A stretch of DNA of 49,497 bases from a virus (IMGVR_UViG_2660238070_000012:1-49497); one strand, 5' to 3'. Positions 21,331 through 49,497 are shown, counted from the first letter of the stretch. A program made the numbers and translations. Notes: a model not told the origin generated them from the letters alone.

Positions 21331-21819
21331 CTATGCTACATGTTTAATTTTCTCTACACGTTTCCGATTTTTAAACGCACTATCCAGAACCGGGTAAATC
21401 ATAAACAACGAGGCATTAAGGATTTCGTCAACTTCCCGTCGACAGGTTGCGAGCGATGGTTTTTGAATGCGCACGCCGCCACGGCATAACATCTTGCGAG
21501 GTCTTGCGACGCGATGATAGTAAGATGCAATGGCGTGCTTGGAAGAGCCATGAGCGTAGTAGCTGAGGAGGATTCCAAAGGCTTTCTTGTCAATGTACAT
21601 GACGGAATCGACGACCTGAGAAATCAACATTCCATCATCATCATTACACATTGGCCTTGTCATAACTCTTCCCGGCTCTACGCTCTCCATGAACTTAGCT
21701 ATTACGCTGCTCATGCGCTTTTCCAGACGACCTGAATAAACCCATGCCCCCCACAGTTCAAGCCAGCCATTCAGCCAATCGTGCTGTTCTTTGGTGAGGT
21801 TTATTTCTCTTATGCTCAT
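21331..21819 (-). CDS. Late-gene antiterminator, Q-like
   Basis: 162-aa ORF immediately upstream of the late leader and holin, after the nin genes. Assignment is mainly positional; it is not lambda Q by sequence. Confidence 0.7.
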   Translation of the reverse strand: MSIREINLTKEQHDWLNGWLELWGAWVYSGRLEKRMSSVIAKFMESVEPGRVMTRPMCNDDDGMLISQVVDSVMYIDKKAFGILLSYYAHGSSKHAIASYYHRVARPRKMLCRGGVRIQKPSLATCRREVDEILNASLFMIYPVLDSAFKNRKRVEKIKHVA

Positions 21820-38919: not shown

Positions 38920-39120
38920 ATGCAACACGAACTACAACCTGATTCACTGGTTGATTTGAAATTCATCATGGCTGATACTGGCTTTGGTAAGACCTTCATC
39001 TATGACCGGATTAAGTCCGGAGACCTGCCTAAAGCCAAAGTTATCCACGGGCGAGCAAGATGGTTATATCGTGACCATTGTGAATTCAAAAATAAGCTCT
39101 TAAGCCGCGCCAATGGGTAA
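38920..39120 (+). CDS. xis: Excisionase / AlpA-family DNA-binding protein
   Basis: 66 aa, small HTH protein (LKFIMADTGFGKTFIYDRIKSGDLPKAKVIHGRARW) directly upstream of the integrase. Confidence 0.75.
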   Translation: MQHELQPDSLVDLKFIMADTGFGKTFIYDRIKSGDLPKAKVIHGRARWLYRDHCEFKNKLLSRANG

Positions 39121-39368
39121 AATAGCGGGTAAAATATTTTTCACATCTAAAAAACACCATTCCAATCAATCCCCTGCCGCCTCAAGTAGATGTCTGCAGG
39201 GGACACCATGAACACTTCTCACTAAGTTCAATTAATTCCATAACTCACTGTTTTAACTGATATCATCTCCTTATACTCGTCCAGCAAAGTACCATTATTT
39301 CTAATGGAATCTATACATCTTTGCGTATAACATTGTGTATAACTGAGTTCGATCTTTTTTCTATACAC

Positions 39369-40544
39369 ATGCTGCTATCTGACATCCAAATAAAAAGAGC
39401 AAAACCGAAGGACAAACCCTATACGCTTAACGATGGTATGGGGCTATCACTCCTGATCGACACAGCGGGCAGTAAAGGCTGGCGTTTTCGCTATCGCTTT
39501 GCAGGTAAGCCTAAGATGATTTCCTTTGGCGTATATGGCGATGTGTCGTTGGCACAGGCACGTACCAAACGTGATGAAGCGCGTTCGATGTTAGCCAACG
39601 GGATAAACCCAAGTGAAGCCAGAAAAGCAGATAAGATTGCTTTGCAGTTCGCGCATGAGAACAGCTTTGAGTCTGTGGCCAGAGAATGGCACTCATCGAA
39701 AAAAGCCACCTGGTCAGAGGGTTATGCAAAAGAGGTTCTCAATTGTATGGAAAAGGATATTTTTCCTTTTATCGGCCAGCGCCCAATTGAGCAGATTGAA
39801 CCATTAGAACTGCTAACCGTCCTGCAAAAAATAGAGAAAAGAGGTGCGCTAGAGCAAACCAGTAAGATCCGCCGCCGCTGTGGTGAAGTGCTTCGTTATG
39901 CTGTTGCCACTGGTAGAGCAAAGTATAATTTTGCACCCGATTTAGCTATCGCACTCAACAAACCTAAAACCCAACACTTCCCGTTCCTGACTGAAAGCGA
40001 GTTGCCCGAGTTCGTTAATGCTCTGGATAACTATCAGGGCAGTTTAGTTACCAAATACGCCACGCAGCTGTTGATGCTAACAGGCGTGCGAACAATTGAA
40101 CTACGTGCAGCGGAATGGGCTGAGTTTGATTTAGATAATGCCTTATGGGAGATCCCCAAAGAACGGATGAAGAAACGCCGCCCCCATCTGGTTCCGTTAT
40201 CAACTCAGGCGATCAATATCCTGAAAAAGCTGCAAGAAATAACAGGGAATTACAGCCTCGTTTTCCCTGGCCGGAATGACGTCAGTAAACCAATGAGCGA
40301 AGCCAGCATCAACAAAGTGATAAAACTACTGGGTTATCACGGTCGGTTAACGGGTCACGGTTTCAGGCATACCATGAGCACCATCTTGCATGAGCATGGG
40401 TTTGAAAGTGCCTGGATTGAAATGCAGCTTGCGCATGTTGATAAGAACTCTATTCGAGGTACTTACAATCATGCGCAATATATTAAAGATCGACAAGTAA
40501 TGATGGAATGGTACGCTAGCTTATTAAATACGACCTGCTATTAA
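39369..40544 (+). CDS. int: Tyrosine recombinase / phage integrase, P4/IntA-like family
   Basis: 391 aa from the ATG at 39369 (MLLSDIQIKRAKPKDKPYTLNDGMGLSL...). C-terminal GHGFRH...RGTYNHAQY catalytic region. Paralogous to the integrase at 1-1158. Confidence 0.9.
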   Translation: MLLSDIQIKRAKPKDKPYTLNDGMGLSLLIDTAGSKGWRFRYRFAGKPKMISFGVYGDVSLAQARTKRDEARSMLANGINPSEARKADKIALQFAHENSFESVAREWHSSKKATWSEGYAKEVLNCMEKDIFPFIGQRPIEQIEPLELLTVLQKIEKRGALEQTSKIRRRCGEVLRYAVATGRAKYNFAPDLAIALNKPKTQHFPFLTESELPEFVNALDNYQGSLVTKYATQLLMLTGVRTIELRAAEWAEFDLDNALWEIPKERMKKRRPHLVPLSTQAINILKKLQEITGNYSLVFPGRNDVSKPMSEASINKVIKLLGYHGRLTGHGFRHTMSTILHEHGFESAWIEMQLAHVDKNSIRGTYNHAQYIKDRQVMMEWYASLLNTTCY

Positions 40545-41474
40545 ATCCAGCATGAAACAAATATGGTGAGTAATTTGATACTGTTTGTTTTTTGGCAACC
40601 CAGGGAAATGCCTTACAGTTGGTTGACTATTGTAATAATAATAGTTAAGACCAATGTTGCTGCCAAACTGGGTTGGATGTTGGGGAACAAGATTTGTAAT
40701 TTGATCTGAAACATCTAAAAATTTTGCAGTAACATTTGAACTTCCTCGTTGCGTGTTGCTTGATACAAAATGACGAATCCAAACTGTATTCGCTTGTAAA
40801 TTCTTGAACACCAAATGTGCGGCAACAGCAGAAGGTTGACCACCTCCAAGATCTAGTACCTGGCCAGTAATTGTATAATCGCCAAATCCTAAGTAATTTT
40901 GTCCCACGAATTGATGTGCGTGCGTGAAAAGTTCCGGCCCATTATAATCAGCATTTTTTGCTAACTTTCTAAAGTTATCGCTAATAATAATTAACTTCGA
41001 CAAAGGAAGAAGAGCGCACTGATTAGGAAGCATTTTATTATTTAAAACAACATGATAACTAATCAATTGATTTGTCGCCAACAACTGAATATCAGAGTTG
41101 GATAATGATGGATTATCATATAGAAGTGCAACTCGTCTATTTAAGTTAGCATTCAACCAATTATTAATATCATTAATCGTTGTATTGGGCTGAATAAGAT
41201 ATCCAGAGATGATATTATTTTTATTTGTTAATACACTTGATAAATTTTGATTTAAAGTTAAGACGTTATTGTGTGAAGAAAAATCTTCCTGATAAGGATT
41301 AAGGATAACAATTATGTCAGAATTCCAAACATTTAAACATGTTAATAAATTTCTCGTATTGACGTTAATTGGTTCTAAAATTGGTAGCAGACCATTTAGG
41401 CTAACTCCCTTCGCAACGAGGTCCCTAAGGCATAATAACTCTGTACTTCTCGCATACAAATATGGGCTATACAT
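40524..41474 (-). CDS. Hypothetical protein, second gene of an AT-rich two-gene cassette
   Basis: 316 aa, Asn/Leu/Ile-rich. Low-GC codon usage unlike the flanking prophage. 3' end overlaps the integrase stop by 21 bp convergently. Confidence 0.65.
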   Translation of the reverse strand: MYSPYLYARSTELLCLRDLVAKGVSLNGLLPILEPINVNTRNLLTCLNVWNSDIIVILNPYQEDFSSHNNVLTLNQNLSSVLTNKNNIISGYLIQPNTTINDINNWLNANLNRRVALLYDNPSLSNSDIQLLATNQLISYHVVLNNKMLPNQCALLPLSKLIIISDNFRKLAKNADYNGPELFTHAHQFVGQNYLGFGDYTITGQVLDLGGGQPSAVAAHLVFKNLQANTVWIRHFVSSNTQRGSSNVTAKFLDVSDQITNLVPQHPTQFGSNIGLNYYYYNSQPTVRHFPGLPKNKQYQITHHICFMLDLIAGRI

Positions 41475-41495
41475 AACTTACAACTCCTGAGGATA

Positions 41496-42377
41496 TCAAC
41501 AAATTTTAATTTTTACATCCATCAAATTCATGATGAATTCTTTTTGCTTTCTTGATAATGGTGTTGCATAACCTAAAACACGTAAACATGCTGGAAGAGA
41601 ATAAATATAATCCAAAAAAACTTTATCGTTACATCTTTTTTTCATAGCAGAGATAAAGTATTTATTTGCTATGTTTAATGGCATCTGCATGAATATCTCT
41701 TTACAATATTCATAAACCAATCCGTTAGGCATATTTATTTTAGTTGAAGTGTAATCTTCTATTATAGCTAAGAACTCTTCCTTTCTAAGAACTGAAAACA
41801 AGCTGTCACTTTTAATATAATCAATATTTGAATCTGCCTCCTTAATGACACTCAATTGATCTTTTTTATTCAAAACCATAACTCCCACTCTGGGGAGATT
41901 TAAAGCACAATATTTACTTGCATACTCTGGATGTGTAACTATATACACTTTATCAAAAACATCCAAATAATCAGGGGCTTGAGTAATCAACCTTTTTGGT
42001 GAATCATACTCTGTCTTAATCTCGTAAGCTGTAGACGTACCATTAAACACCGCAACATCCACTATAGAGTTTTTAATTGGTAACTCTATGGACGACGAAC
42101 TTGTTTTTGGGCTGTGCTTACCGAATATTATTTTATTGACAAGTGCTGTCTTATAAACATATTCATTTCTATAATTCAGACGCAAAAAATCATATAATGA
42201 TGTAAATAAATCCCTTAGTGAAATCTCATGTTCATTATTATCATTGTTTGAAAACAGTGTTTCATAGCAGTAAGAATCAAAACTCCCAAATAAATCCGAA
42301 ATATCCTTACCTTTTGCTAAGGATGAAAAAATGGGGCGACGGAAAAATTTAGCATATTCCTTTTTATTATGACTCAT
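41496..42377 (-). CDS. Hypothetical protein with PD-(D/E)xK-like nuclease motif, first gene of AT-rich cassette
   Basis: 293 aa. IVDVAVFNGTSTAYEIKTEYD gives D-x10-E-x-K spacing typical of restriction-endonuclease-fold nucleases. Very AT-rich. 21-bp gap to the downstream gene. Confidence 0.65.
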   Translation of the reverse strand: MSHNKKEYAKFFRRPIFSSLAKGKDISDLFGSFDSYCYETLFSNNDNNEHEISLRDLFTSLYDFLRLNYRNEYVYKTALVNKIIFGKHSPKTSSSSIELPIKNSIVDVAVFNGTSTAYEIKTEYDSPKRLITQAPDYLDVFDKVYIVTHPEYASKYCALNLPRVGVMVLNKKDQLSVIKEADSNIDYIKSDSLFSVLRKEEFLAIIEDYTSTKINMPNGLVYEYCKEIFMQMPLNIANKYFISAMKKRCNDKVFLDYIYSLPACLRVLGYATPLSRKQKEFIMNLMDVKIKIC

Positions 42378-43056
42378 TACTCATACTCTATAAACATCAT
42401 GCAATTTGATAAGTTATGACGAATTCTCACCATCCAGTTACTACCTGTACATACTAATCAAAAAAAACGAGTACGCAAGATACGAAAGTACTTTTCTTGT
42501 TCACCAGTTAGCTTACCTTGATCCTCACCAGCGACTGGAAGATAGGTAGCAGTATATGTGGAAACCTTCCCCTAGCTAGGTCTACAAACGTAGTTTGGGC
42601 ATTTAGGCTCCACGATTCACGGTTTGACACGGCCTGATATCTGCACATTCGTTTTGATATGCAGCAATCGTGAAAAAGGAAAATATACGCTCGACAGACC
42701 AAAACGGCACTACACCGCACCCGCCTGCGGTTTTCATATCACTAAAAATTTTCAGCCTGGATTTTTTACAAACGATACCGCCAGTCCGTGCCAGTCCTCG
42801 AGATGTACTGCGATACAGGAACTGAAAAGAATGAAAAGAAATTCATTTTTTTTCAGTTTTACTGTCCGTCGAATCTATGGCCTGAATACGCAACTCTATG
42901 ATATTAAATGGATAATTAATTTTAGGTGTGTGATTTTATGAAGGTTTGTGAAACATGAAGAAGATAACCAGTTGAAAAATAATAATTTTATGACCGTATA
43001 AACTGAAATCCTGTGTTCAGGTTCCGGGAACAGATCGGCCATTCCCGACGCATACT

Positions 43057-43329
43057 TTACCCATTCTTTTGCGCAGCCAGCAGCAACTTTAAAGCCTTTT
43101 CCCGTTCCTCGGGTGGAATTGCATCAATCAGCTCTTTAACCCTTCCCTGCCCGTTCAGCGCGCTTGGACTAACGGAATGGGAGAAAGCAACATTCATCAC
43201 AAACGAGTGACCGCACTCCACATTAGAGCAATAGCAGTACACATCGTACAGTTGTGGGTGTTTCCTGTTTGTTTTACCTATCCGTGCTACTGCCTGACAT
43301 GTGGGGCAGTACATTCTCATCATCTTCAT
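43057..43329 (-). CDS. Ogr/Delta-family zinc-finger late transcription activator
   Basis: 90 aa: MYCPTCQ...VYCYCSNVECGHSF gives the C-x2-C...C-x4-C pattern of P2 Ogr / P4 Delta. True start may be an internal Met. Confidence 0.7.
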   Translation of the reverse strand: MKMMRMYCPTCQAVARIGKTNRKHPQLYDVYCYCSNVECGHSFVMNVAFSHSVSPSALNGQGRVKELIDAIPPEEREKALKLLLAAQKNG

Positions 43330-43394
43330 CGTTCTGTGCCCTATACTGTTGCCCGCCAGAAGAAGGGATTTGGATCCCTACCTCTTGTTCTGAA

Positions 43395-43590
43395 CGTGTA
43401 ACACTGGTAACACGTGTAACGCTATTGATTTAAAAGGATTTAATCTGTTACCAGTTAGCAAAATCAAGAGGTAACGCGTGGTAACACACCATTTTTTGTT
43501 ACCTCTGTTACCAGTCAGTATTTTTGACTGGTAACACTGAAGAACCGCATCAGTAACGGGTGTTACCTCTGTTACCAGTGTTACCTCATA
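43395..43590. repeat. Iteron cluster (GGTAACA / TGTTACC) downstream of the primase gene; candidate ori/crr
   Basis: At least 12 copies of the heptamer GGTAACA or its complement TGTTACC in both orientations within ~190 bp (for example TGTTACCTCTGTTACCAG twice). Confidence 0.6.
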
Positions 43591-43611
43591 AAAATAAGAC
43601 TCACGCGATAA

Positions 43612-46299
43612 TCACTCAGGTTCAGCGCTTCCCAGTACCTGTGTATTGAACTGGTACACACGTTTAAGCCCTATTTCTGGCAGGCGAATGCTGTTTTGCG
43701 TCCGGCCATCTTCACCGGGTTTCAGCCAGCCCGCGTCCACACACAACCTGGCCACCTTACGCGAGTCAAATCCCTTACAGATCTCCTTCCAGCCTGACGG
43801 GAGAACGTAGAACGTCACAACCGGCTCTGTCACGTTGTCTCCTTTATCGACTTTTCTGAATCCCATCATTGAAACAGGCCGGTTCCTGTCGTCATTCCAG
43901 TCAGCAAACCGACTGAACTGATTACGCGTCATGAAGTCCCGAACCTGTTCAAGTGCCGCTTTATCTTCCTGATTAGCTGTATGGCCCCGGTCAGCCATCC
44001 ATGCAGCCAGACAGCTTTGAGCGGCACGAAAGGCCTCTCCCTCCGGCCATCCTGTGATGCCCGCTTTTGTGGCCAGCTCCCCGGCCATCGCAACCAGAGC
44101 AAAACGGGTAACAGCCCGGCCAACCTGATTCCCGGCATTTTCCGGCGTCAGCCTTCGGGTATACTCTTTCAATAAGGCTTTCGCCTGACTGGTCAGTTCC
44201 GGCAGATCAGCGGTCAGGCAATACAGCCAGTCGCGGAATGGTGCACCATGATAATGCGCTACGTGCTGCTCAAGATGCTCAGCCAGGGTTTTCCCGCTAC
44301 TGAAGCCATGAAGTTCTTCAAACACGCCATACTTGCCCGAATCGCTTGGGATCTGGATCATTCTGACCTCAACCCCGGCATACGTACGTTCCCCGGCGCT
44401 TGCCGCATGCTCTACCAGTGACAGTTCCCCGGTAGACAGAAACAACAGATTCCAGCGGTTGGTTTCCCTTACCGAACCATCTGTTCTGGCTCTGGCTTTG
44501 CCCTGCCCGTTAGCCAGCATATAAGCGATATTTCCCGCCTCCCTGCCGTCAACCTCCCGGATTTCATCCAGCATCAGCGTGGCATCATTGCGGCGGCTCG
44601 CCGTTCCTTCTAAGGCATTCCCCGTCGCCCGCCACGTATGCCAGAAATCTGTTCCACCACATACTGATGCAGCCACTTTCATCGTCGTGGTTTTACCGTC
44701 TGTGGATTCCCCTTTGAGGTGATAACCTCCACCGCCGATACCAACCAGTTTCAGAAGGGGGGCAGCAAATGCCAGACTCACCGCAAAGGCAAGACGGGCA
44801 TTCTTTATGCAATAACGGCCTATATTTTCACGCCAGCCCTCTGATGTGCCGCTGACACGAAAATCACGCCCCTGCACACTCGATGTTTGTAAGATGACTG
44901 ACTGGGCTTCGCGCCCTATCACTTCATCCTGGAGAACGTAAACCCCGCCGTGCCAGCCAGTTTTATTCACACAGGTTACTTTTCTGTCCGGTTTACACAG
45001 CGAGATATATTCCATCAGGAATGCTCTGGCCATGCCGTTAATGTTGATGTAAGAAAGCCCGTTAACCAGCAGAACGCGGCGCAGTTCTTCCCCGCTACCG
45101 CCCAGCATCTCCATCGGCATTGCCCATTTACGGCTGTTTCCGTTGGTATCTTCCCATTCCAGCAAACGCCCGTAATTACTTCCATCAGCATCACTGGTGA
45201 TTGCCGTCACCCGCAACGGACTGCAAATTTTGATATTACGTATCTCTGTATCACCATCAGACTTATTAACCAGCTTGTCGTACCACAAATATTCTTTTGT
45301 CAGCCGGAACCCTTCTGGTAAACGGGTCTGCCCTTTGCCATGCAGCGTCATTTCTTCACGAAAGGCATCTCTCGCCCGTTCTTTCCCCACTTCCTGCCGA
45401 TAATCATCCCAGTCAGCCTTATGGCGTACCGGAGGGAGCGTTACCCAGCCATCCACCGCTTTGGCGGCTTTCTCTGCCTGAATACGCCCGGTGTTTTCTT
45501 TGCCGTCAGCCAGATCATTATCTCCGGCCAGAATGATCCGGGTTTCCGGCCAGCGTTTTCGGATCTGCTCCGTCACCTTCAGTAAATTGGTGGCAGCGAC
45601 AGCCGCCACGATCCATCCTTCAGTCAGCAGACTGACGGTAAGCGCCGTGGCAAAACCCTCAGTGATAATCACCTGTTCAGGTGTTTCAGCGGGTATATCG
45701 GTCAGGGCAATGAATGCGCCAGACAGCTGGCTACCGGGCAGCAGACTTTTATCCCCGTCAGGATTGATAAGCTGGCCACCAGTAATATTCCCGGAAATAT
45801 CCGTCAAAGGCAGCAGTAATGAACCGGTGGAAAATGTTATTCCGGCCAGATTCAAAGGCTGTGACAGCAAGGGAAGTGAATACCCGTGTAAGCTCTTATT
45901 TGTCAGATAGACCGGCTCACCATTGCAGGACTGCTGTCTGAGTCTGGTATATCGCTCCGCGCCCGCTTCTTTTCCTGCGGCCTTTTTCCTGGCTGGCAAT
46001 GCGGGCTTCTCCTGTATTTCTGGTAATGCAAGCGCCTCAGATACCATCCCGGCGACTTCTTTTATCTTTCTTCCTGTCACCAGACGAACCAGATCAAGAC
46101 CATCGCCATGACCGCACTGATTACAAAACCACGTCCCTCGCCCCGCTTTATCGTCCAGTCGAAAACGATCTTTTCCACCACAGGCAGGGCAAGCCCCATG
46201 ATGTCCTGCGGACGGTACTTTAATACCTAATGCTGACAGGATATAAGGCCAGCGCCCAATTGCAGCTCCGGAAATCGTGGATACAGACGGTGTTTTCAC
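43612..46299 (-). CDS. Primase-helicase, P4 alpha-like
   Basis: 895 aa. N-terminal zinc-binding primase motif (CPACGGKDRFR...CNQCGHGDGLD), Toprim-like region (IILAGDNDLADGKENTG), C-terminal helicase Walker A (LKGESTDGKTT). Confidence 0.85.
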   Translation of the reverse strand: MKTPSVSTISGAAIGRWPYILSALGIKVPSAGHHGACPACGGKDRFRLDDKAGRGTWFCNQCGHGDGLDLVRLVTGRKIKEVAGMVSEALALPEIQEKPALPARKKAAGKEAGAERYTRLRQQSCNGEPVYLTNKSLHGYSLPLLSQPLNLAGITFSTGSLLLPLTDISGNITGGQLINPDGDKSLLPGSQLSGAFIALTDIPAETPEQVIITEGFATALTVSLLTEGWIVAAVAATNLLKVTEQIRKRWPETRIILAGDNDLADGKENTGRIQAEKAAKAVDGWVTLPPVRHKADWDDYRQEVGKERARDAFREEMTLHGKGQTRLPEGFRLTKEYLWYDKLVNKSDGDTEIRNIKICSPLRVTAITSDADGSNYGRLLEWEDTNGNSRKWAMPMEMLGGSGEELRRVLLVNGLSYININGMARAFLMEYISLCKPDRKVTCVNKTGWHGGVYVLQDEVIGREAQSVILQTSSVQGRDFRVSGTSEGWRENIGRYCIKNARLAFAVSLAFAAPLLKLVGIGGGGYHLKGESTDGKTTTMKVAASVCGGTDFWHTWRATGNALEGTASRRNDATLMLDEIREVDGREAGNIAYMLANGQGKARARTDGSVRETNRWNLLFLSTGELSLVEHAASAGERTYAGVEVRMIQIPSDSGKYGVFEELHGFSSGKTLAEHLEQHVAHYHGAPFRDWLYCLTADLPELTSQAKALLKEYTRRLTPENAGNQVGRAVTRFALVAMAGELATKAGITGWPEGEAFRAAQSCLAAWMADRGHTANQEDKAALEQVRDFMTRNQFSRFADWNDDRNRPVSMMGFRKVDKGDNVTEPVVTFYVLPSGWKEICKGFDSRKVARLCVDAGWLKPGEDGRTQNSIRLPEIGLKRVYQFNTQVLGSAEPE

Positions 46300-46706
46300 A
46301 GCAGCACCTCCTGACCTTCCGGCTTCACAAATTCAAAACCTTCGGGTAGTTCGCCATCAGGTGCTCCGAAAATAATATCCCGGTAAACCTCACGCATCTC
46401 TGTGACACCAAAAACTGACAGGCGAATATTTTCTGACATAAAGCCTGGTTTAAGCATTTTTTCCAGTTTCTCTGCGGCCAGTATGCAACCAGCATCAGCC
46501 CCAAACTCATTCACCCACGGCATTTCAATATGGTAAATAATATTACTCACCACTTTTTCGTGGGAGAGTTCTATTCGTTCGCCATCTTCAATATAAACAG
46601 GTTCATTATGAACACGCACCATTAAGGAAATGAATGCATCAGCAATGTAGTAGCGTAAGACTGCTGTTCGTAAAGCATGCGCCTTTAAATTTTGATTATT
46701 ATTCAT
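46296..46706 (-). CDS. Hypothetical protein upstream of the primase (epsilon position)
   Basis: 136-aa ORF translationally coupled (ATGA) to the primase gene. Confidence 0.5.
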   Translation of the reverse strand: MNNNQNLKAHALRTAVLRYYIADAFISLMVRVHNEPVYIEDGERIELSHEKVVSNIIYHIEMPWVNEFGADAGCILAAEKLEKMLKPGFMSENIRLSVFGVTEMREVYRDIIFGAPDGELPEGFEFVKPEGQEVLL

Positions 46707-46935
46707 CGCGCATCACTCCCTTAATTGTGCTGGTTTCCTTAACAACGCCATCCAGTTGTTCGGCAATACAGGCCACTAAAGCCGCAGCGCCTTCCGCTGA
46801 AACAGTTCTCGCTCCATTCACTGTGGGCACGGACAAGACCTCTGCAAGAAACTCACTGGCCAGTGCCGCCCGTAACAGACGACTCTCCCCCTGTTCACTC
46901 AATATGCAGCCTTGCTTAAAATTCATGGATTTCAT
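46699..46935 (-). CDS. Hypothetical protein
   Basis: 78-aa ORF coupled to the downstream gene. Confidence 0.45.
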   Translation of the reverse strand: MKSMNFKQGCILSEQGESRLLRAALASEFLAEVLSVPTVNGARTVSAEGAAALVACIAEQLDGVVKETSTIKGVMRDE

Positions 46936-47135
46936 GCAACCACCTCCCCGGCTCTTTTCACAGGGATACGGGCAGCAAAGCTCAGGATAAATTCAGTGGC
47001 AAGTTTAAGGCGTGCAGCATGCTCGCATTCTGCGATTACACGCACAGGGCGTGGACGGGCATCACGGTCTGTACGGCGGACAGCCAGAAAGACAAAGGTA
47101 AATTCAGGGTGAGATAAAGCAGGGACTGTAGCCAT
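46932..47135 (-). CDS. Hypothetical small protein (possible DNA-binding regulator)
   Basis: 67 aa from the internal ATG at 47135 (MATVPALSHPEFTFVFLAVRRTDRDARPRPVRVIAECEHAARLKLATEF...). The longer listed ORF runs through a structured non-coding region. Confidence 0.4.
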   Translation of the reverse strand: MATVPALSHPEFTFVFLAVRRTDRDARPRPVRVIAECEHAARLKLATEFILSFAARIPVKRAGEVVA

Positions 47136-47146
47136 AATGGCAACCT

Positions 47147-47413
47147 CCTTCAGATAGCGGGTAACGCTACCACCGGAGTTCCTACGCTCATGGGTGGTAG
47201 CCCAGACGGGGGTAGGAATACCGGCTCTGAAGGATACCGGCCAGCCCGAAAGCTGCCCCGCCTGGACTACCATAATTCTGATGATGTGGCGTAAAAAATA
47301 AAAAAATACAATCAGCCACCACACCATAAATTTTAGGTGAGTCAAAGCTGCGACACAAAAAAACACGCCTAGCGCGTGTAGTATCGCCTTCAGATAACAC
47401 GGGTTCCTACGCC
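47147..47413. promoter_or_regulatory. Structured leader with two direct repeats and one inverted-complementary segment (candidate antisense-RNA control region)
   Basis: CCTTCAGATA..GGGT...TTCCTACGC occurs at 47147-47187 and 47387-47413. A partially complementary segment GTAGGAATACCGGCTCTGAAGG lies at 47212-47233. An internal hairpin GCTACCACC / GGTGGTAGC is at 47165-47201. Confidence 0.4.
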
Positions 47414-47609
47414 CGGCTGCCGATTTTGCGGCAACCTTTAAACTATATCCCGCGCATTCCTGGTGAGGCAAGAAATTTATAACCGAAAACTGATCATTGC
47501 CTGGATTAATTAACGCTGGCATGCTTAAGCCTCTGCTTAAAAATAGTTCTTCATTTTTCCTGATGCTGTAAACGAGACCCGCCTCTGAGCGGGTCTTTCT
47601 GTCGCTAAG

Positions 47610-48614
47610 TCAATCCGCAAACGTCAGGGTGCACTCATCAACAGCCGCGTACAGTTCAGGTTCACCGAGTGCATAACCTTCATTGCGCAGGTAGGAATGC
47701 ACGTATTCACTGCTTTCATCATCAAACTCAGCACGAAACCAGCGTGTTATCGCCTGAGTGTAAATATGCAGATTATCCAGCGTCGTTACTGCCAGACGCT
47801 TACCCGGCATAAACGGGGGAATAAACGCAAAGCGGCCAGCAACAGAACTTGTAGCCATCTGTGCCGCATTCACATCAGACGGGCGGTCTGCGGCATTAAA
47901 TAACTTCAGGCGTTGATGTGCTGCCAGCTCTGCCCCAACCAGTACAACCAGACGAGGATCTTCACGAAACTGCTCAGCAATAAGCTCTGTAATCAGATGG
48001 TTGGCCAGAGCATCAATATTTTTCCAGGTGCCAGTCTCTCCCAGAGTGACAGGCTCAGAGATGATTTGCTTTCCGTTCCCGTAGGCTTTCGCCAGTGCAT
48101 GCCAGCCAATATTGACATCCTCGCCTTTTTTATTGATTTCCGGGTTTGTAGTATTTGCAATCGACACACCGTTGAAACCGACCCGCAGCATGTCCAGCGC
48201 ATATGCCTGGGCAAAAAAGCTCTCAACCGTTTTCTCAAACTCATCCGGCACGCCGGTATGGTAAATATGAGACATATCGGAATAGCTGATCCGGGCGCAG
48301 GTATCCGTCTCTGTCAGAAAGAACTCCGTACCATTGATTGCCATTTTTTTGTGGAAACGGCCACCATCCACACGTCCGGTATACAGTTCACTGGCACCAA
48401 TATTGACGGCATTACCTGACACGGCGTTAACATCACGTAGGGTAATATTTTTAATAAGCCACCCGGATTCCAGAATTGAGGTACGCAGTATATTTTCAGT
48501 AGGTTCGCTTAATGCAAAGCGTCTGTTTGATTCTTCCTGATAGTTAGTGCCAGTGACGAATTTATTATGATAACGACGTGCTGCGTCCGGCCTTTCAGTT
48601 TTGAAGGCATACAT
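47610..48614 (-). CDS. Major capsid protein homolog, P2 gpN family
   Basis: 334 aa. GFNGV, GW, IDAL, EDPRLVVLVG and LDNLHIY align with recalled P2 gpN motifs (GFNGV, GW, LDAL, EDPDLVVIVG, LENLSIY). Based on recalled sequence only. Confidence 0.6.
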   Translation of the reverse strand: MYAFKTERPDAARRYHNKFVTGTNYQEESNRRFALSEPTENILRTSILESGWLIKNITLRDVNAVSGNAVNIGASELYTGRVDGGRFHKKMAINGTEFFLTETDTCARISYSDMSHIYHTGVPDEFEKTVESFFAQAYALDMLRVGFNGVSIANTTNPEINKKGEDVNIGWHALAKAYGNGKQIISEPVTLGETGTWKNIDALANHLITELIAEQFREDPRLVVLVGAELAAHQRLKLFNAADRPSDVNAAQMATSSVAGRFAFIPPFMPGKRLAVTTLDNLHIYTQAITRWFRAEFDDESSEYVHSYLRNEGYALGEPELYAAVDECTLTFAD

Positions 48615-48636
48615 AGTTTTTCACCTTTTTAAGTAT

Positions 48637-49497
48637 TTAAGAAAAGATTTTATTTTTGTACTCAGTAACCAGATTGTATTTCATTACATGCTCAACATAA
48701 TCCCGGTCACTTACGACTGAACGTAATACATAATTATCTGCTCGATAGTACTCCCTGTAAGCCATAGCTCTTGCCATTCCACCGTTATTTAATACATAAC
48801 GATCAGTTGGAACGCTACAACGACTAATAATTTCACTCACGGAATCAGATAAAGACTTGAGTGCATCAGTAATAAATTTAATATCACGGACAACGTCACT
48901 GTCATTAAATACAGAAATAAAATCAGCAGGGATCTGGCCGGATTGAGGAAATATATTCAGTAAACGCTTATCGATTCCCTTCCCAATGTAGTTTCCTTCA
49001 TCGGCCAGTACTCCCGGCAAAAGCTTGATCGTGCTCAATCGACTATGTTGTTCATTCAACCGGGAAACAGCCAGATGGTAATACCGTTCAGCATCCGCTC
49101 GTTCAGCATGCCCCATTTTATTCGTTTTGGCTTCAGCAATGCTACTGACGCCGTTTTTTGAGAATGTGCTTTTCCATGCAACTTCCGCATTTGTCACTTC
49201 ACGCTGCCGGAAAGATAACTCTTCCTCTTCCTGACGACACAACTGGGCATAACGGCTCAGGAGCAGGTTGATCTCATTCGCCACAGTTTCCGTATCAGGT
49301 ACTGTTAACCCCGTAAGTGAATACAGCTTTTCACCTTTAGCTCGCAGCTTATTCAGTGAATATATTTCAATAATACGCACAATACAGGCCGTGTCGCTAT
49401 GAGTCTCTTTAAATGATCTTACTTTGTAACTATCTAACACCGACACATGTTCGTTCTTAATTGATGCCAATTTCTTCTTAAAAACATTGTCAACCAT
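48637..49497 (-). CDS. Hypothetical protein (start coincides with window end)
   Basis: 286-aa ORF upstream of and co-oriented with the capsid homolog. Does not resemble recalled P2 gpO scaffold. May be N-terminally truncated by the window. Confidence 0.5.
   Translation of the reverse strand: MVDNVFKKKLASIKNEHVSVLDSYKVRSFKETHSDTACIVRIIEIYSLNKLRAKGEKLYSLTGLTVPDTETVANEINLLLSRYAQLCRQEEEELSFRQREVTNAEVAWKSTFSKNGVSSIAEAKTNKMGHAERADAERYYHLAVSRLNEQHSRLSTIKLLPGVLADEGNYIGKGIDKRLLNIFPQSGQIPADFISVFNDSDVVRDIKFITDALKSLSDSVSEIISRCSVPTDRYVLNNGGMARAMAYREYYRADNYVLRSVVSDRDYVEHVMKYNLVTEYKNKIFS

Follow-up and report, generated by a model that had tools for sequence, protein, structure and literature searches.

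A P4-related phage satellite lineage of Enterobacterales with a P2-family capsid gene

We analyzed a 49,497-nucleotide stretch of viral DNA (IMGVR_UViG_2660238070_000012:1-49497), which we will call the window; positions are counted from its first nucleotide. The region at 43057–49497 encodes, all on the minus strand, an Ogr/Delta-type activator, a primase-helicase, a homolog of the major capsid protein of P2-family phages, and a 286-amino-acid protein, which we will call p286. (An initial annotation, made from the sequence alone, had placed these four genes in this region, and our ORF listing and family scans agree.) It is well supported from sequence that this region is most of an intact 11.0-kb P4-related phage satellite in the chromosome of Escherichia coli ST131. 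Taking the two together, we consider it highly probable that the element is a satellite and that its helpers are ESSI-2-like phages. Its main features within the window are:

39190–39209, plus strand: attL of the satellite, ATGTCTGCAGGGGACACCAT, a hybrid site common to the right end of a neighboring P22-like prophage
39369–40544, plus strand: P4-type tyrosine integrase, 391 amino acids as annotated (an ORF start is also possible at 39321)
40524–42377, minus strand: variable cargo between integrase and cos (sce7725-family gene at 40524–41474, sce7726-family gene at 41496–42377)
42680–42860, no strand: probable cos region, non-coding, with the invariant core CGGCACTACACCGCACCCGCCTGC at 42705–42728
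43057–43329, minus strand: Ogr/Delta-type late-gene activator, 90 amino acids, single domain (PF04606, E = 5e-14)
43406–43585, no strand: 10 iterons (GTTACC/GGTAAC) in a cluster that directly follows the primase gene and precedes the Ogr gene
43612–46299, minus strand: primase-helicase, 895 amino acids, with Zn_Ribbon_Prim, Toprim_3, and DUF927 domains (phrog_1139, E = 4.5e-185)
46296–46706, minus strand: 136-amino-acid protein in the position of P4 orf106/cnr, DUF5375-like (phrog_5991, E = 8e-38)
46699–46935, minus strand: 78-amino-acid protein in the position of P4 epsilon (phrog_38507 only)
46932–47522, minus strand: P4-type immunity region, annotated as an Ash/Icd-like ORF (PF10554, E = 3e-32)
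47610–48614, minus strand: satellite-encoded major capsid protein homolog, WP_000270796.1, 334 amino acids, P2 family, ESSI-2-like branch
48637–49497, minus strand: p286, WP_000228221.1, a 286-amino-acid orphan, predicted to be all-helical, immediately upstream of the capsid gene

An 11-kb element at tRNA-Arg

The limits of the element are easiest to see in strain SA186. There, a 20-nt direct repeat, ATTCCTGCAGGGGACACCAT, forms the 3' end of tRNA-Arg (argW), and its second copy lies 11,034 bp downstream, which gives the att-to-att size. The attL copy in the window has 2 mismatches to this repeat (by chance, no such match is expected). From tRNA-Arg to dsdC, the genes in SA186 are the integrase, sce7725, sce7726, Ogr/Delta, primase, two hypotheticals, an Icd-like gene, capsid, p286, and a helix-turn-helix regulator.

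The initial annotation saw no integrase in the window, but the gene at 39369–40544 encodes one, with Arm-DNA-bind_3, Phage_int_M, and Phage_integrase domains (Pfam scan). The identical protein (WP_000926944.1) adjoins tRNA-Arg in SA186, and because it follows the tRNA directly there, without an intervening prophage, we assign it to the satellite. The last position of the window is the start codon of p286, and the element does run on past that point, as had been predicted, by about 750 bp: an 18-bp spacer, a 75-amino-acid alpA-type helix-turn-helix gene (PF05930 matches its orthologs in relatives), about 480 bp of non-coding DNA, and attR. The initial annotation advised extending the sequence rightward; the far att site does lie there, but the integrase and attL lie inside the window, to the left of the region at 43057–49497. 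(Between alpA and attR, about 320 bp past the window's end, at 21617–21705 of locus L001, the pentanucleotide GGGCT is repeated perfectly about 18 times in tandem. The length of this array could vary from strain to strain.)

The element carries att sites, an integrase, an immunity RNA, a replication module, a late-gene activator, and a cos site of its own. With every ORF of the 11 kb accounted for, it has no other virion gene: portal, terminase, and tail genes are absent. Among the options that the initial annotation had offered, this composition favors a capsid-encoding satellite.

Many E. coli ST131 chromosomes, JJ1886 and SA186 among them, match the 7.1 kb around the region at 43057–49497 with 100% identity. 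At least 80% of the 7.1 kb is present in 446 of 5426 complete E. coli genomes (421 of the 446 at 99% identity or above), so that about 8% of complete E. coli genomes carry it, chiefly those of the pandemic ST131 clone. A DNA-level search of phage records with the 7.1-kb region gave nothing beyond one 110-bp stretch.

To the left, the satellite abuts a P22-like lambdoid prophage (about 1–39189), with a common att core; this prophage ends with torI at 38920–39120. It encodes CI/Cro, N, RecT, Ea22, and TorI, and a matching genome has P22-type capsid, scaffold, and portal genes. Since the prophage is absent from SA186, which has the satellite alone, the two are separate elements in tandem at argW. 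Since a tRNA scan of the window found none, the intact tRNA-Arg must lie to the left of the window.

The capsid gene and its partner

The 334-amino-acid protein belongs to the P2 gpN family, as the initial annotation had stated. It matches PF05125 with E = 9.5e-67 and 225.8 bits (the cut-off is 27 bits) across profile positions 16–326 of 327, and phrog_70 with E = 1.8e-86. Its similarity to proteins in the PDB is also significant (7oz4, E = 3.6e-21; 7jw1, which is P2 gpN, E = 2.7e-16).

In a neighbor-joining tree, the capsid proteins of this satellite and its relatives form one clade, which is sister to the clade of ESSI-2-like phages, and its two subclades track host families. The satellite proteins are full length and collinear with the phage proteins; at the 90% level, 82 alignment columns are conserved with the same residue in the two sets, and only nine differences are fixed between them. 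In pairwise comparisons of family members, dN/dS is 0.04–0.18 for the capsid gene and 0.04–0.09 for the primase, and the values for capsid, p286, and gpO_N (a gene found in some relatives, described below) are comparable to that of the primase. Given the monophyletic clade, the collinearity with phage proteins, and the low dN/dS, the capsid gene is not a decaying remnant. And a full-length, strongly constrained protein that shares 82 conserved columns with phage capsid proteins suggests that the ability to assemble has been kept. (An AlphaFold2 model of the capsid protein, from a 15-sequence alignment, had a pLDDT of just 41, and we did not use it for fold searches or domain mapping.)

The gene that precedes the capsid gene was described initially as unrelated to it; p286 has no match in Pfam, in PADLOC, or among PDB sequences. 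An AlphaFold2 model (pLDDT 85, pTM 0.80) predicts an all-helical protein that includes a long helical hairpin. Among 1.84 billion representative proteins, a profile search found only 53 clusters, nearly all with proteins of 276–300 amino acids. The two most distant of those that we checked both lie between AlpA and a P2-family capsid gene. For p286, dN/dS is 0.09–0.28, with one low-divergence pair at 0.57.

In ESSI-2-like phages, the gpO scaffold occupies the slot upstream of the capsid gene. Because p286 forms an invariant pair with the capsid gene and sits in this slot, we propose that it is a candidate scaffold or size-determining partner. In Brenneria populi D9-5 (locus L027), the ortholog of p286 has an in-frame TAG that leaves an ORF of 217 amino acids; this may be a natural knockout. 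The same genome also has an ESSI-2-like prophage (L039).

Relatives, helpers, and the other genes

Capsid homologs at 50–100% identity are annotated in many Enterobacterales. Our scan of species-representative genomes gave 80 loci, which a tblastn census sorted into two types. About 25 of the 80 are satellite-type, with the order alpA-p286-capsid-(gpO_N)-ash-primase-ogr; the census found portal, terminase (terL, terS), sheath, sid, and psu genes in none of these. About 53 are phage-type, with Ogr, portal, and terL divergent from gpO (about 270 amino acids), capsid, terS, and tail sheath. The longer order alpA-p286-capsid-(gpO_N)-ash-primase-ogr-cos-cargo-int recurs in at least 25 loci from at least 15 genera. 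The initial annotation had noted the lack of sid- and psu-like genes, and this holds more widely: the element has no Pfam match to either, and tblastn finds neither in any family member.

In Providencia and Pectobacterium, for instance, the order is AlpA, a protein of about 285 amino acids, capsid, a 170-amino-acid Phage_GPO_N protein, Ash, primase (DUF927), Ogr/Delta, cargo, and integrase. The gpO_N gene is found only in the branch from Yersiniaceae, Pectobacteriaceae, and Morganellaceae. Its product keeps D19, H48, and S107 of P2 gpO, which reportedly form the catalytic triad of the protease (Chang and colleagues, 2009), and lacks the C-terminal scaffolding half; dN/dS is 0.02–0.09. Across 17 members of the family, the att-to-att size is 10.9–12.4 kb despite differing cargo. 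This is about 37–40% of a 29–31 kb helper genome, and the ratio of P4 to P2 is 35%.

The integrase gene has two placements. In one, seen in E. coli, it follows the cargo and is read from the opposite strand; in the other, it immediately precedes alpA and shares its strand, which resembles the int-alpA layout of phage-inducible chromosomal islands (PICIs). Loci L016, L017, L019, L021, L027, L030, L032, L034, L036, L037, and L093 form one group by this arrangement and L001, L003, L006, L018, L020, L029, L031, and L035 the other; each arrangement goes with different tRNA or att sites. There is also a divergent branch (L097/L098, from GCA_009480045.1, with the p286 homolog P0262) whose Ogr/Delta protein has 162 amino acids, about the length of P4 delta, and which has a PF25738 "Derepression" (epsilon-like) gene alongside the p286-capsid pair. 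This branch may link classical P4-like elements to the capsid-carrying lineage.

Three independent markers (the capsid protein, Ogr, and cos) indicate that the helper is an ESSI-2-like peduovirus and not P2. The capsid protein is 47–50% identical to those of Cronobacter phage ESSI-2, Escherichia phages ESSI2_ev015/040/129/239, and Yersinia phage vB_YenM_324, as against 23% for P2 gpN. Over its full length, Ogr shares 52% identity with its counterpart in Escherichia phage ESSI2_ev040, and it is 21% identical to P4 delta. The link to P2 that was drawn initially holds for the protein family; the helper lineage is ESSI-2-like and not P2 itself. A helper among the small (29–31 kb) ESSI-2-like peduoviruses (Seongnamvirus, Quadragintavirus, Tresduoquattuorvirus) is well supported by these sequence comparisons. 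And in six species-representative assemblies, the satellite and an ESSI-2-like prophage are co-resident.

The third marker is the non-coding stretch at 42680–42860, which is about 75% identical to both ends of the ESSI-2 record and collinear with them across the end-to-start junction. That record has GCGGGTGCGGTGTAG at both ends and begins with (G)GCGG, similar to the GGCGAGG at the start of P2; the 19-nt cohesive end of P2 and 186 has no match anywhere in the window, even with 3 mismatches. The core of 21–22 nt is invariant in every satellite locus that we examined, from E. coli to Providencia, Xenorhabdus, Proteus, and Pectobacterium, and in all of these it lies 350–700 bp downstream of ogr. 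Yersinia phage vB_YenM_324 has an identical core. At least 120 IMG/VR contigs contain the exact 22-mer; we inspected 80 of these, and 61 have ESSI-2-like baseplate, fiber, or integrase genes alongside, while 7 are satellites. We infer that the conserved 22-mer is a cos site, and the cohesive end would be GGCGGGTGCGGTGTAG, on the minus strand.

In phage ESSI2_ev040 (L095, 28468–30523), the cos-like region is flanked by abortive-infection and serine acetyltransferase genes and adjoins the integrase. This cargo hotspot beside cos parallels those described for P2 and P4. The 15.4-kb "Salmonella phage S.Kent 1-2-1" looked like a possible packaged satellite and turned out to be a fragment of an ordinary ESSI-2-like phage. 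We also considered a TGT-N12-ACA dyad about 64 nt upstream of E. coli alpA as a late promoter; it is not conserved in the family, and we give it no weight.

The replication gene was initially called an alpha-type primase. This is correct for the N-terminal 317 residues (38% identity to P4 alpha, E = 2e-49) but not for the remainder, which is a DUF927 domain without similarity to the helicase or origin-binding part of P4 alpha. The iterons are probably a replication origin or a crr-like site, judging from their density (10 copies in 180 bp, as against 0.57 per kb in the window as a whole) and position; in P4, the crr repeats likewise lie downstream of alpha. We saw no second cluster elsewhere in the element.

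The gene at 46296–46706 is tied to P4 orf106 through PHROG and Pfam families only, and BLASTP finds no similarity between the two proteins. A Pectobacterium gene for a 136-amino-acid protein in the matching position carries PF17345 (DUF5375), and the E. coli protein gives a tblastn match there. We rejected the 78-amino-acid protein as an epsilon homolog: it is similar neither to P4 epsilon nor to the PF25738 protein in the same position of a Salmonella relative.

The immunity region resembles that of P4 at the RNA level. (Its coordinates were obtained by adding 28399 to those of locus L001.) It contains:

47190–47277: C4 (CI-type) antisense RNA (Rfam C4, 81.1 bits; gathering score 45)
47358–47435: isrK-like leader (Rfam isrK, 68.9 bits; gathering score 50)
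47396–47448: C4 target sites (Rfam c4-a1b1, 43.8 bits, just under the gathering score of 46.7)
47471–47442: promoter-like site (promoter/terminator scan)

C4 is the RNA family of the CI immunity RNA of P4. The promoter-like site, along with a terminator-like hairpin from the same scan, is at the place expected for a leader of the P4 P_LE type.

Between cos and the integrase, the sce7725 and sce7726 genes are AT-rich (30–36% GC) and look like a candidate defense pair. The sce7726 protein matches PADLOC PDLC02989 ("cll", E = 1.2e-18) and is 39% identical to P4 cII over 61 amino acids (E = 9e-11); the sce7725 protein is not similar to P4 beta. At the equivalent position, relatives from Providencia and Pectobacterium have Kiwa in one and an Ec48-type retron in the other.

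What the capsid gene may do, and why it matters

Much of the element is P4-like: its size of about 11 kb, integration at a tRNA by a P4-type integrase, AlpA/Vis, an Ash region with CI/C4 RNA, a Cnr-like gene, an alpha primase domain with iterons downstream, an Ogr/Delta activator, and cos beside a hotspot for defense cargo (including the cII homolog) next to the integrase. (We also considered the retronphage phiR73 as a match; it is reportedly homologous to most of P4 (Sun and colleagues, 1991), which would make it a classical P4-like element.) Unlike P4, the satellite lacks sid and psu and has the capsid gene and p286 between alpA and the immunity region. Its Ogr is single-domain, helper-like, and encoded after the primase gene, whereas P4 delta lies in a sid-delta-psu operon. 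And the helicase part of its primase is DUF927, and its cos is of the ESSI-2 type instead of the P2 type. Of the seven core genes of P4-like satellites used by SatelliteFinder (PMC8628076, PMC13586616), five are present, alpha only through its N-terminal primase domain, and Sid and Psu are the two missing, although an epsilon homolog itself was not found. This puts the satellite into the "Type C" class, whose sets lack two core genes and are rare (79 of 1037; PMC13586616). Regions with only some P4 markers have been interpreted as probably defective (PMC13586616).

That a satellite can carry a capsid homolog is already established, from Ccm of SaPIbov5 and from the Gram-negative PICIs PmCI172 and EcCICFT073 (PMC6092414, PMC6893505). 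What sets this lineage apart among P4-related satellites is its different helper group and its capsid-based morphogenetic module; our literature search, which did not reach most subscription journals, found no capsid gene in a P4-type satellite and no description of this lineage. Like Ccm, the satellite protein was acquired from a phage and is homologous to the HK97-fold capsid protein of the helper, and both are found in cos-packaged satellites without terminase and portal genes of their own (PMC8569155). Ccm differs in its capsid family, host phylum, and satellite lineage; it is 24% identical to its helper protein, rather than 47–50%; and neither p286 nor the gpO protease domain has an equivalent in the Ccm system. 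Also, Ccm turns prolate heads into isometric ones, whereas both heads would be isometric here, with a change from T=7 to T=4.

Capsid-forming PICIs (cf-PICIs) also have their own capsid protein and form small capsids (bioRxiv 10.1101/2022.09.08.507074, PMC10085698), as we propose for our satellites. They encode more besides (portal, protease, head-tail connectors, and terminase subunits), and the helper supplies only tails. Because the E. coli satellite lacks these extras, and a protease domain is found in only one subclade, our satellites must also borrow portal and terminase. PmCI172 and EcCICFT073 have a capsid-like gene and an int-alpA-...-primase layout, as do those of our satellites with the integrase upstream of alpA, and PmCI172 puts small heads on myovirus tails (PMC6092414). 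By their published descriptions, these PICIs have Mu-like or lambdoid helpers and no Ogr/Delta, C4 RNA, or P2-family capsid protein (PMC6092414, PMC6893505). The ESSI-2-like Peduoviridae contain the nearest relatives of the capsid protein and Ogr, with the same cos core and with defense cargo next to cos. But they are complete phages of 29–31 kb, with Ogr by the portal and terminase genes, divergent from the gpO (270 amino acids)-capsid-terS head genes and the tail genes.

We propose that this P4-related lineage uses its own capsid protein and p286 to make satellite-sized heads, which are completed with the helper's portal, terminase, and tails. We give this a probability of roughly 0.6. In a lysogen, the C4-type RNA would silence the replication operon. 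Upon infection by a helper or its induction, the two Ogr proteins would cross-activate late genes, the primase-helicase would replicate the excised element from the iterons, and the alpA-p286-capsid genes would then be expressed. The satellite capsid protein and p286 would form procapsids for about 11 kb of DNA rather than about 30 kb, presumably with a contribution from the satellite's gpO-type protease in the Yersiniaceae, Pectobacteriaceae, and Morganellaceae branch. The satellite protein might make up the whole shell or occupy defined positions in it, and it would substitute for the external Sid cage of P4. The helper's portal, terminase (which would cut the shared cos), head-completion proteins, and tails would complete the particle. 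Small heads are an economical explanation because three copies of the element (33–37 kb) would be too much for a helper head and two too little. There are precedents as well. Ccm of SaPIbov5 occupies pentons and forces small T=4 capsids (PMC8569155); PmCI172, with its capsid homolog, has small capsids (PMC6092414); and cf-PICIs build whole small capsids (bioRxiv 10.1101/2022.09.08.507074). More tentatively, and at somewhat less than even odds, we suggest that this widespread branch swapped the Sid/Psu cage for a procapsid kit of its own (a capsid protein acquired long ago from ESSI-2-like peduoviruses, p286 as scaffold or ruler, and in some members a stand-alone gpO protease), so that virions would be chimeric, with a T=4 satellite shell on a helper portal, cut by the helper terminase at a mimicked cos and fitted with helper tails.

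Several observations count against our proposal. The case for small capsids draws on sequence and precedent, and EcCICFT073, which also carries a capsid homolog, travels in capsids of full size (PMC6893505). For p286, the proposed role is our guess from position and linkage: searches of the PDB and BFVD with its model found no specific fold, and profile comparisons with P4 Sid, P4 Psu, and ESSI-2 gpO found no similarity. The E. coli branch, without gpO_N, would need the helper's protease and scaffold. The 22-mer is placed as the cleavage site from the ends of one phage record and from conservation, not from mapped termini, and an Ogr-type late promoter was not demonstrable. ESSI-2-like prophages were found in just 29 of 5426 complete E. 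coli genomes, and none were seen in ST131, so the ST131 satellite may seldom meet a helper. (Infant gut viromes have yielded ESSI-2-like phages of E. coli, and such phages are scarce as E. coli prophages; PMC6969025.) And insertion sequences interrupt the satellite in some ST131 strains (IS1A in AR_0081, ISEc23 in JJ1886 and JJ1887, IS4321 in S12), so some copies are probably inactivated.

We also considered that the satellite protein might be a minority subunit, as Ccm is (PMC8569155): placed at specific positions, such as the twelve pentons, of a mostly helper-made shell, it would impose the curvature of a small capsid, with p286 as an accessory. This would be a variant of size redirection rather than a separate function. 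The identity of 47–50%, the collinearity, and the 82 columns conserved in both satellite and helper capsid proteins make co-assembly plausible, and it would suit the E. coli branch, which has no scaffold or protease of its own. Sequence does not separate this arrangement from a whole-shell role, but the subclade with a gpO protease and the invariant presence of p286 look more like a self-sufficient procapsid kit, and we think that a minority role is rather unlikely. Alternatively, the capsid homolog and p286 might only poison or misdirect helper heads, with the satellite's DNA traveling in ordinary helper capsids, possibly as multimers. Interference with helper assembly is common among satellites, this element adjoins defense cargo, and EcCICFT073 does use full-size capsids (PMC6893505). 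But sizes held at 10.9–12.4 kb fit poorly into heads for 29–31 kb, and the constraint on the full-length capsid protein, with its shared conserved columns, suggests continued assembly, so pure interference seems less probable still.

The initial annotation had raised two other possibilities. If an ESSI-2-like prophage and a P4-like island had left a decaying hybrid or a chance mosaic at this locus, the capsid gene would be functionless; the rarity of helpers in E. coli (29 of 5426 genomes; PMC6969025), the insertion sequences in ST131, and the stop codon in Brenneria populi p286 could be read this way. This seems inconsistent with the recurrence of the 11–12 kb gene order with intact frames in many genera, with a monophyletic satellite capsid clade that tracks host taxonomy, and with strong purifying selection (dN/dS of 0.04–0.18 for the capsid gene), a conserved cos core, and intact att sites. 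We therefore consider decay very improbable. As for an ordinary, complete P2-like prophage, genes for a P2-family capsid protein and for Ogr are indeed both present. However, the chromosomal flanks (tRNA-Arg and dsdC) are 11 kb apart, which marks an 11-kb island, the island lacks portal, terminase, and tail genes, and the large prophage to the left, which SA186 lacks, is P22-like. We give this explanation almost no credence.

Capsid-size piracy has its textbook example in P4. The genes sid and psu serve to define P4-like satellites in surveys, and elements without both have been classed as rare and "incomplete" or read as defective (PMC13586616). Instead, a conserved lineage in Enterobacterales attains a genome size of about 11 kb with another toolkit and another helper group, which widens the known helper range of P4-type satellites. 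It is a second, independent case of a satellite that took a helper's capsid gene, after Ccm of SaPIbov5. The defense-cargo slot bears on how defense genes move between enterobacteria. With the isolated ESSI2_ev coliphages, E. coli offers a tractable system for how a capsid variant or its partner sets the T number. The lineage suggests a further route by which satellites may acquire small capsids, and if the procapsid-kit version of our proposal is true, these satellites would lie halfway between capsid remodeling, as in P4 and SaPI1, and the full capsid autonomy of cf-PICIs.

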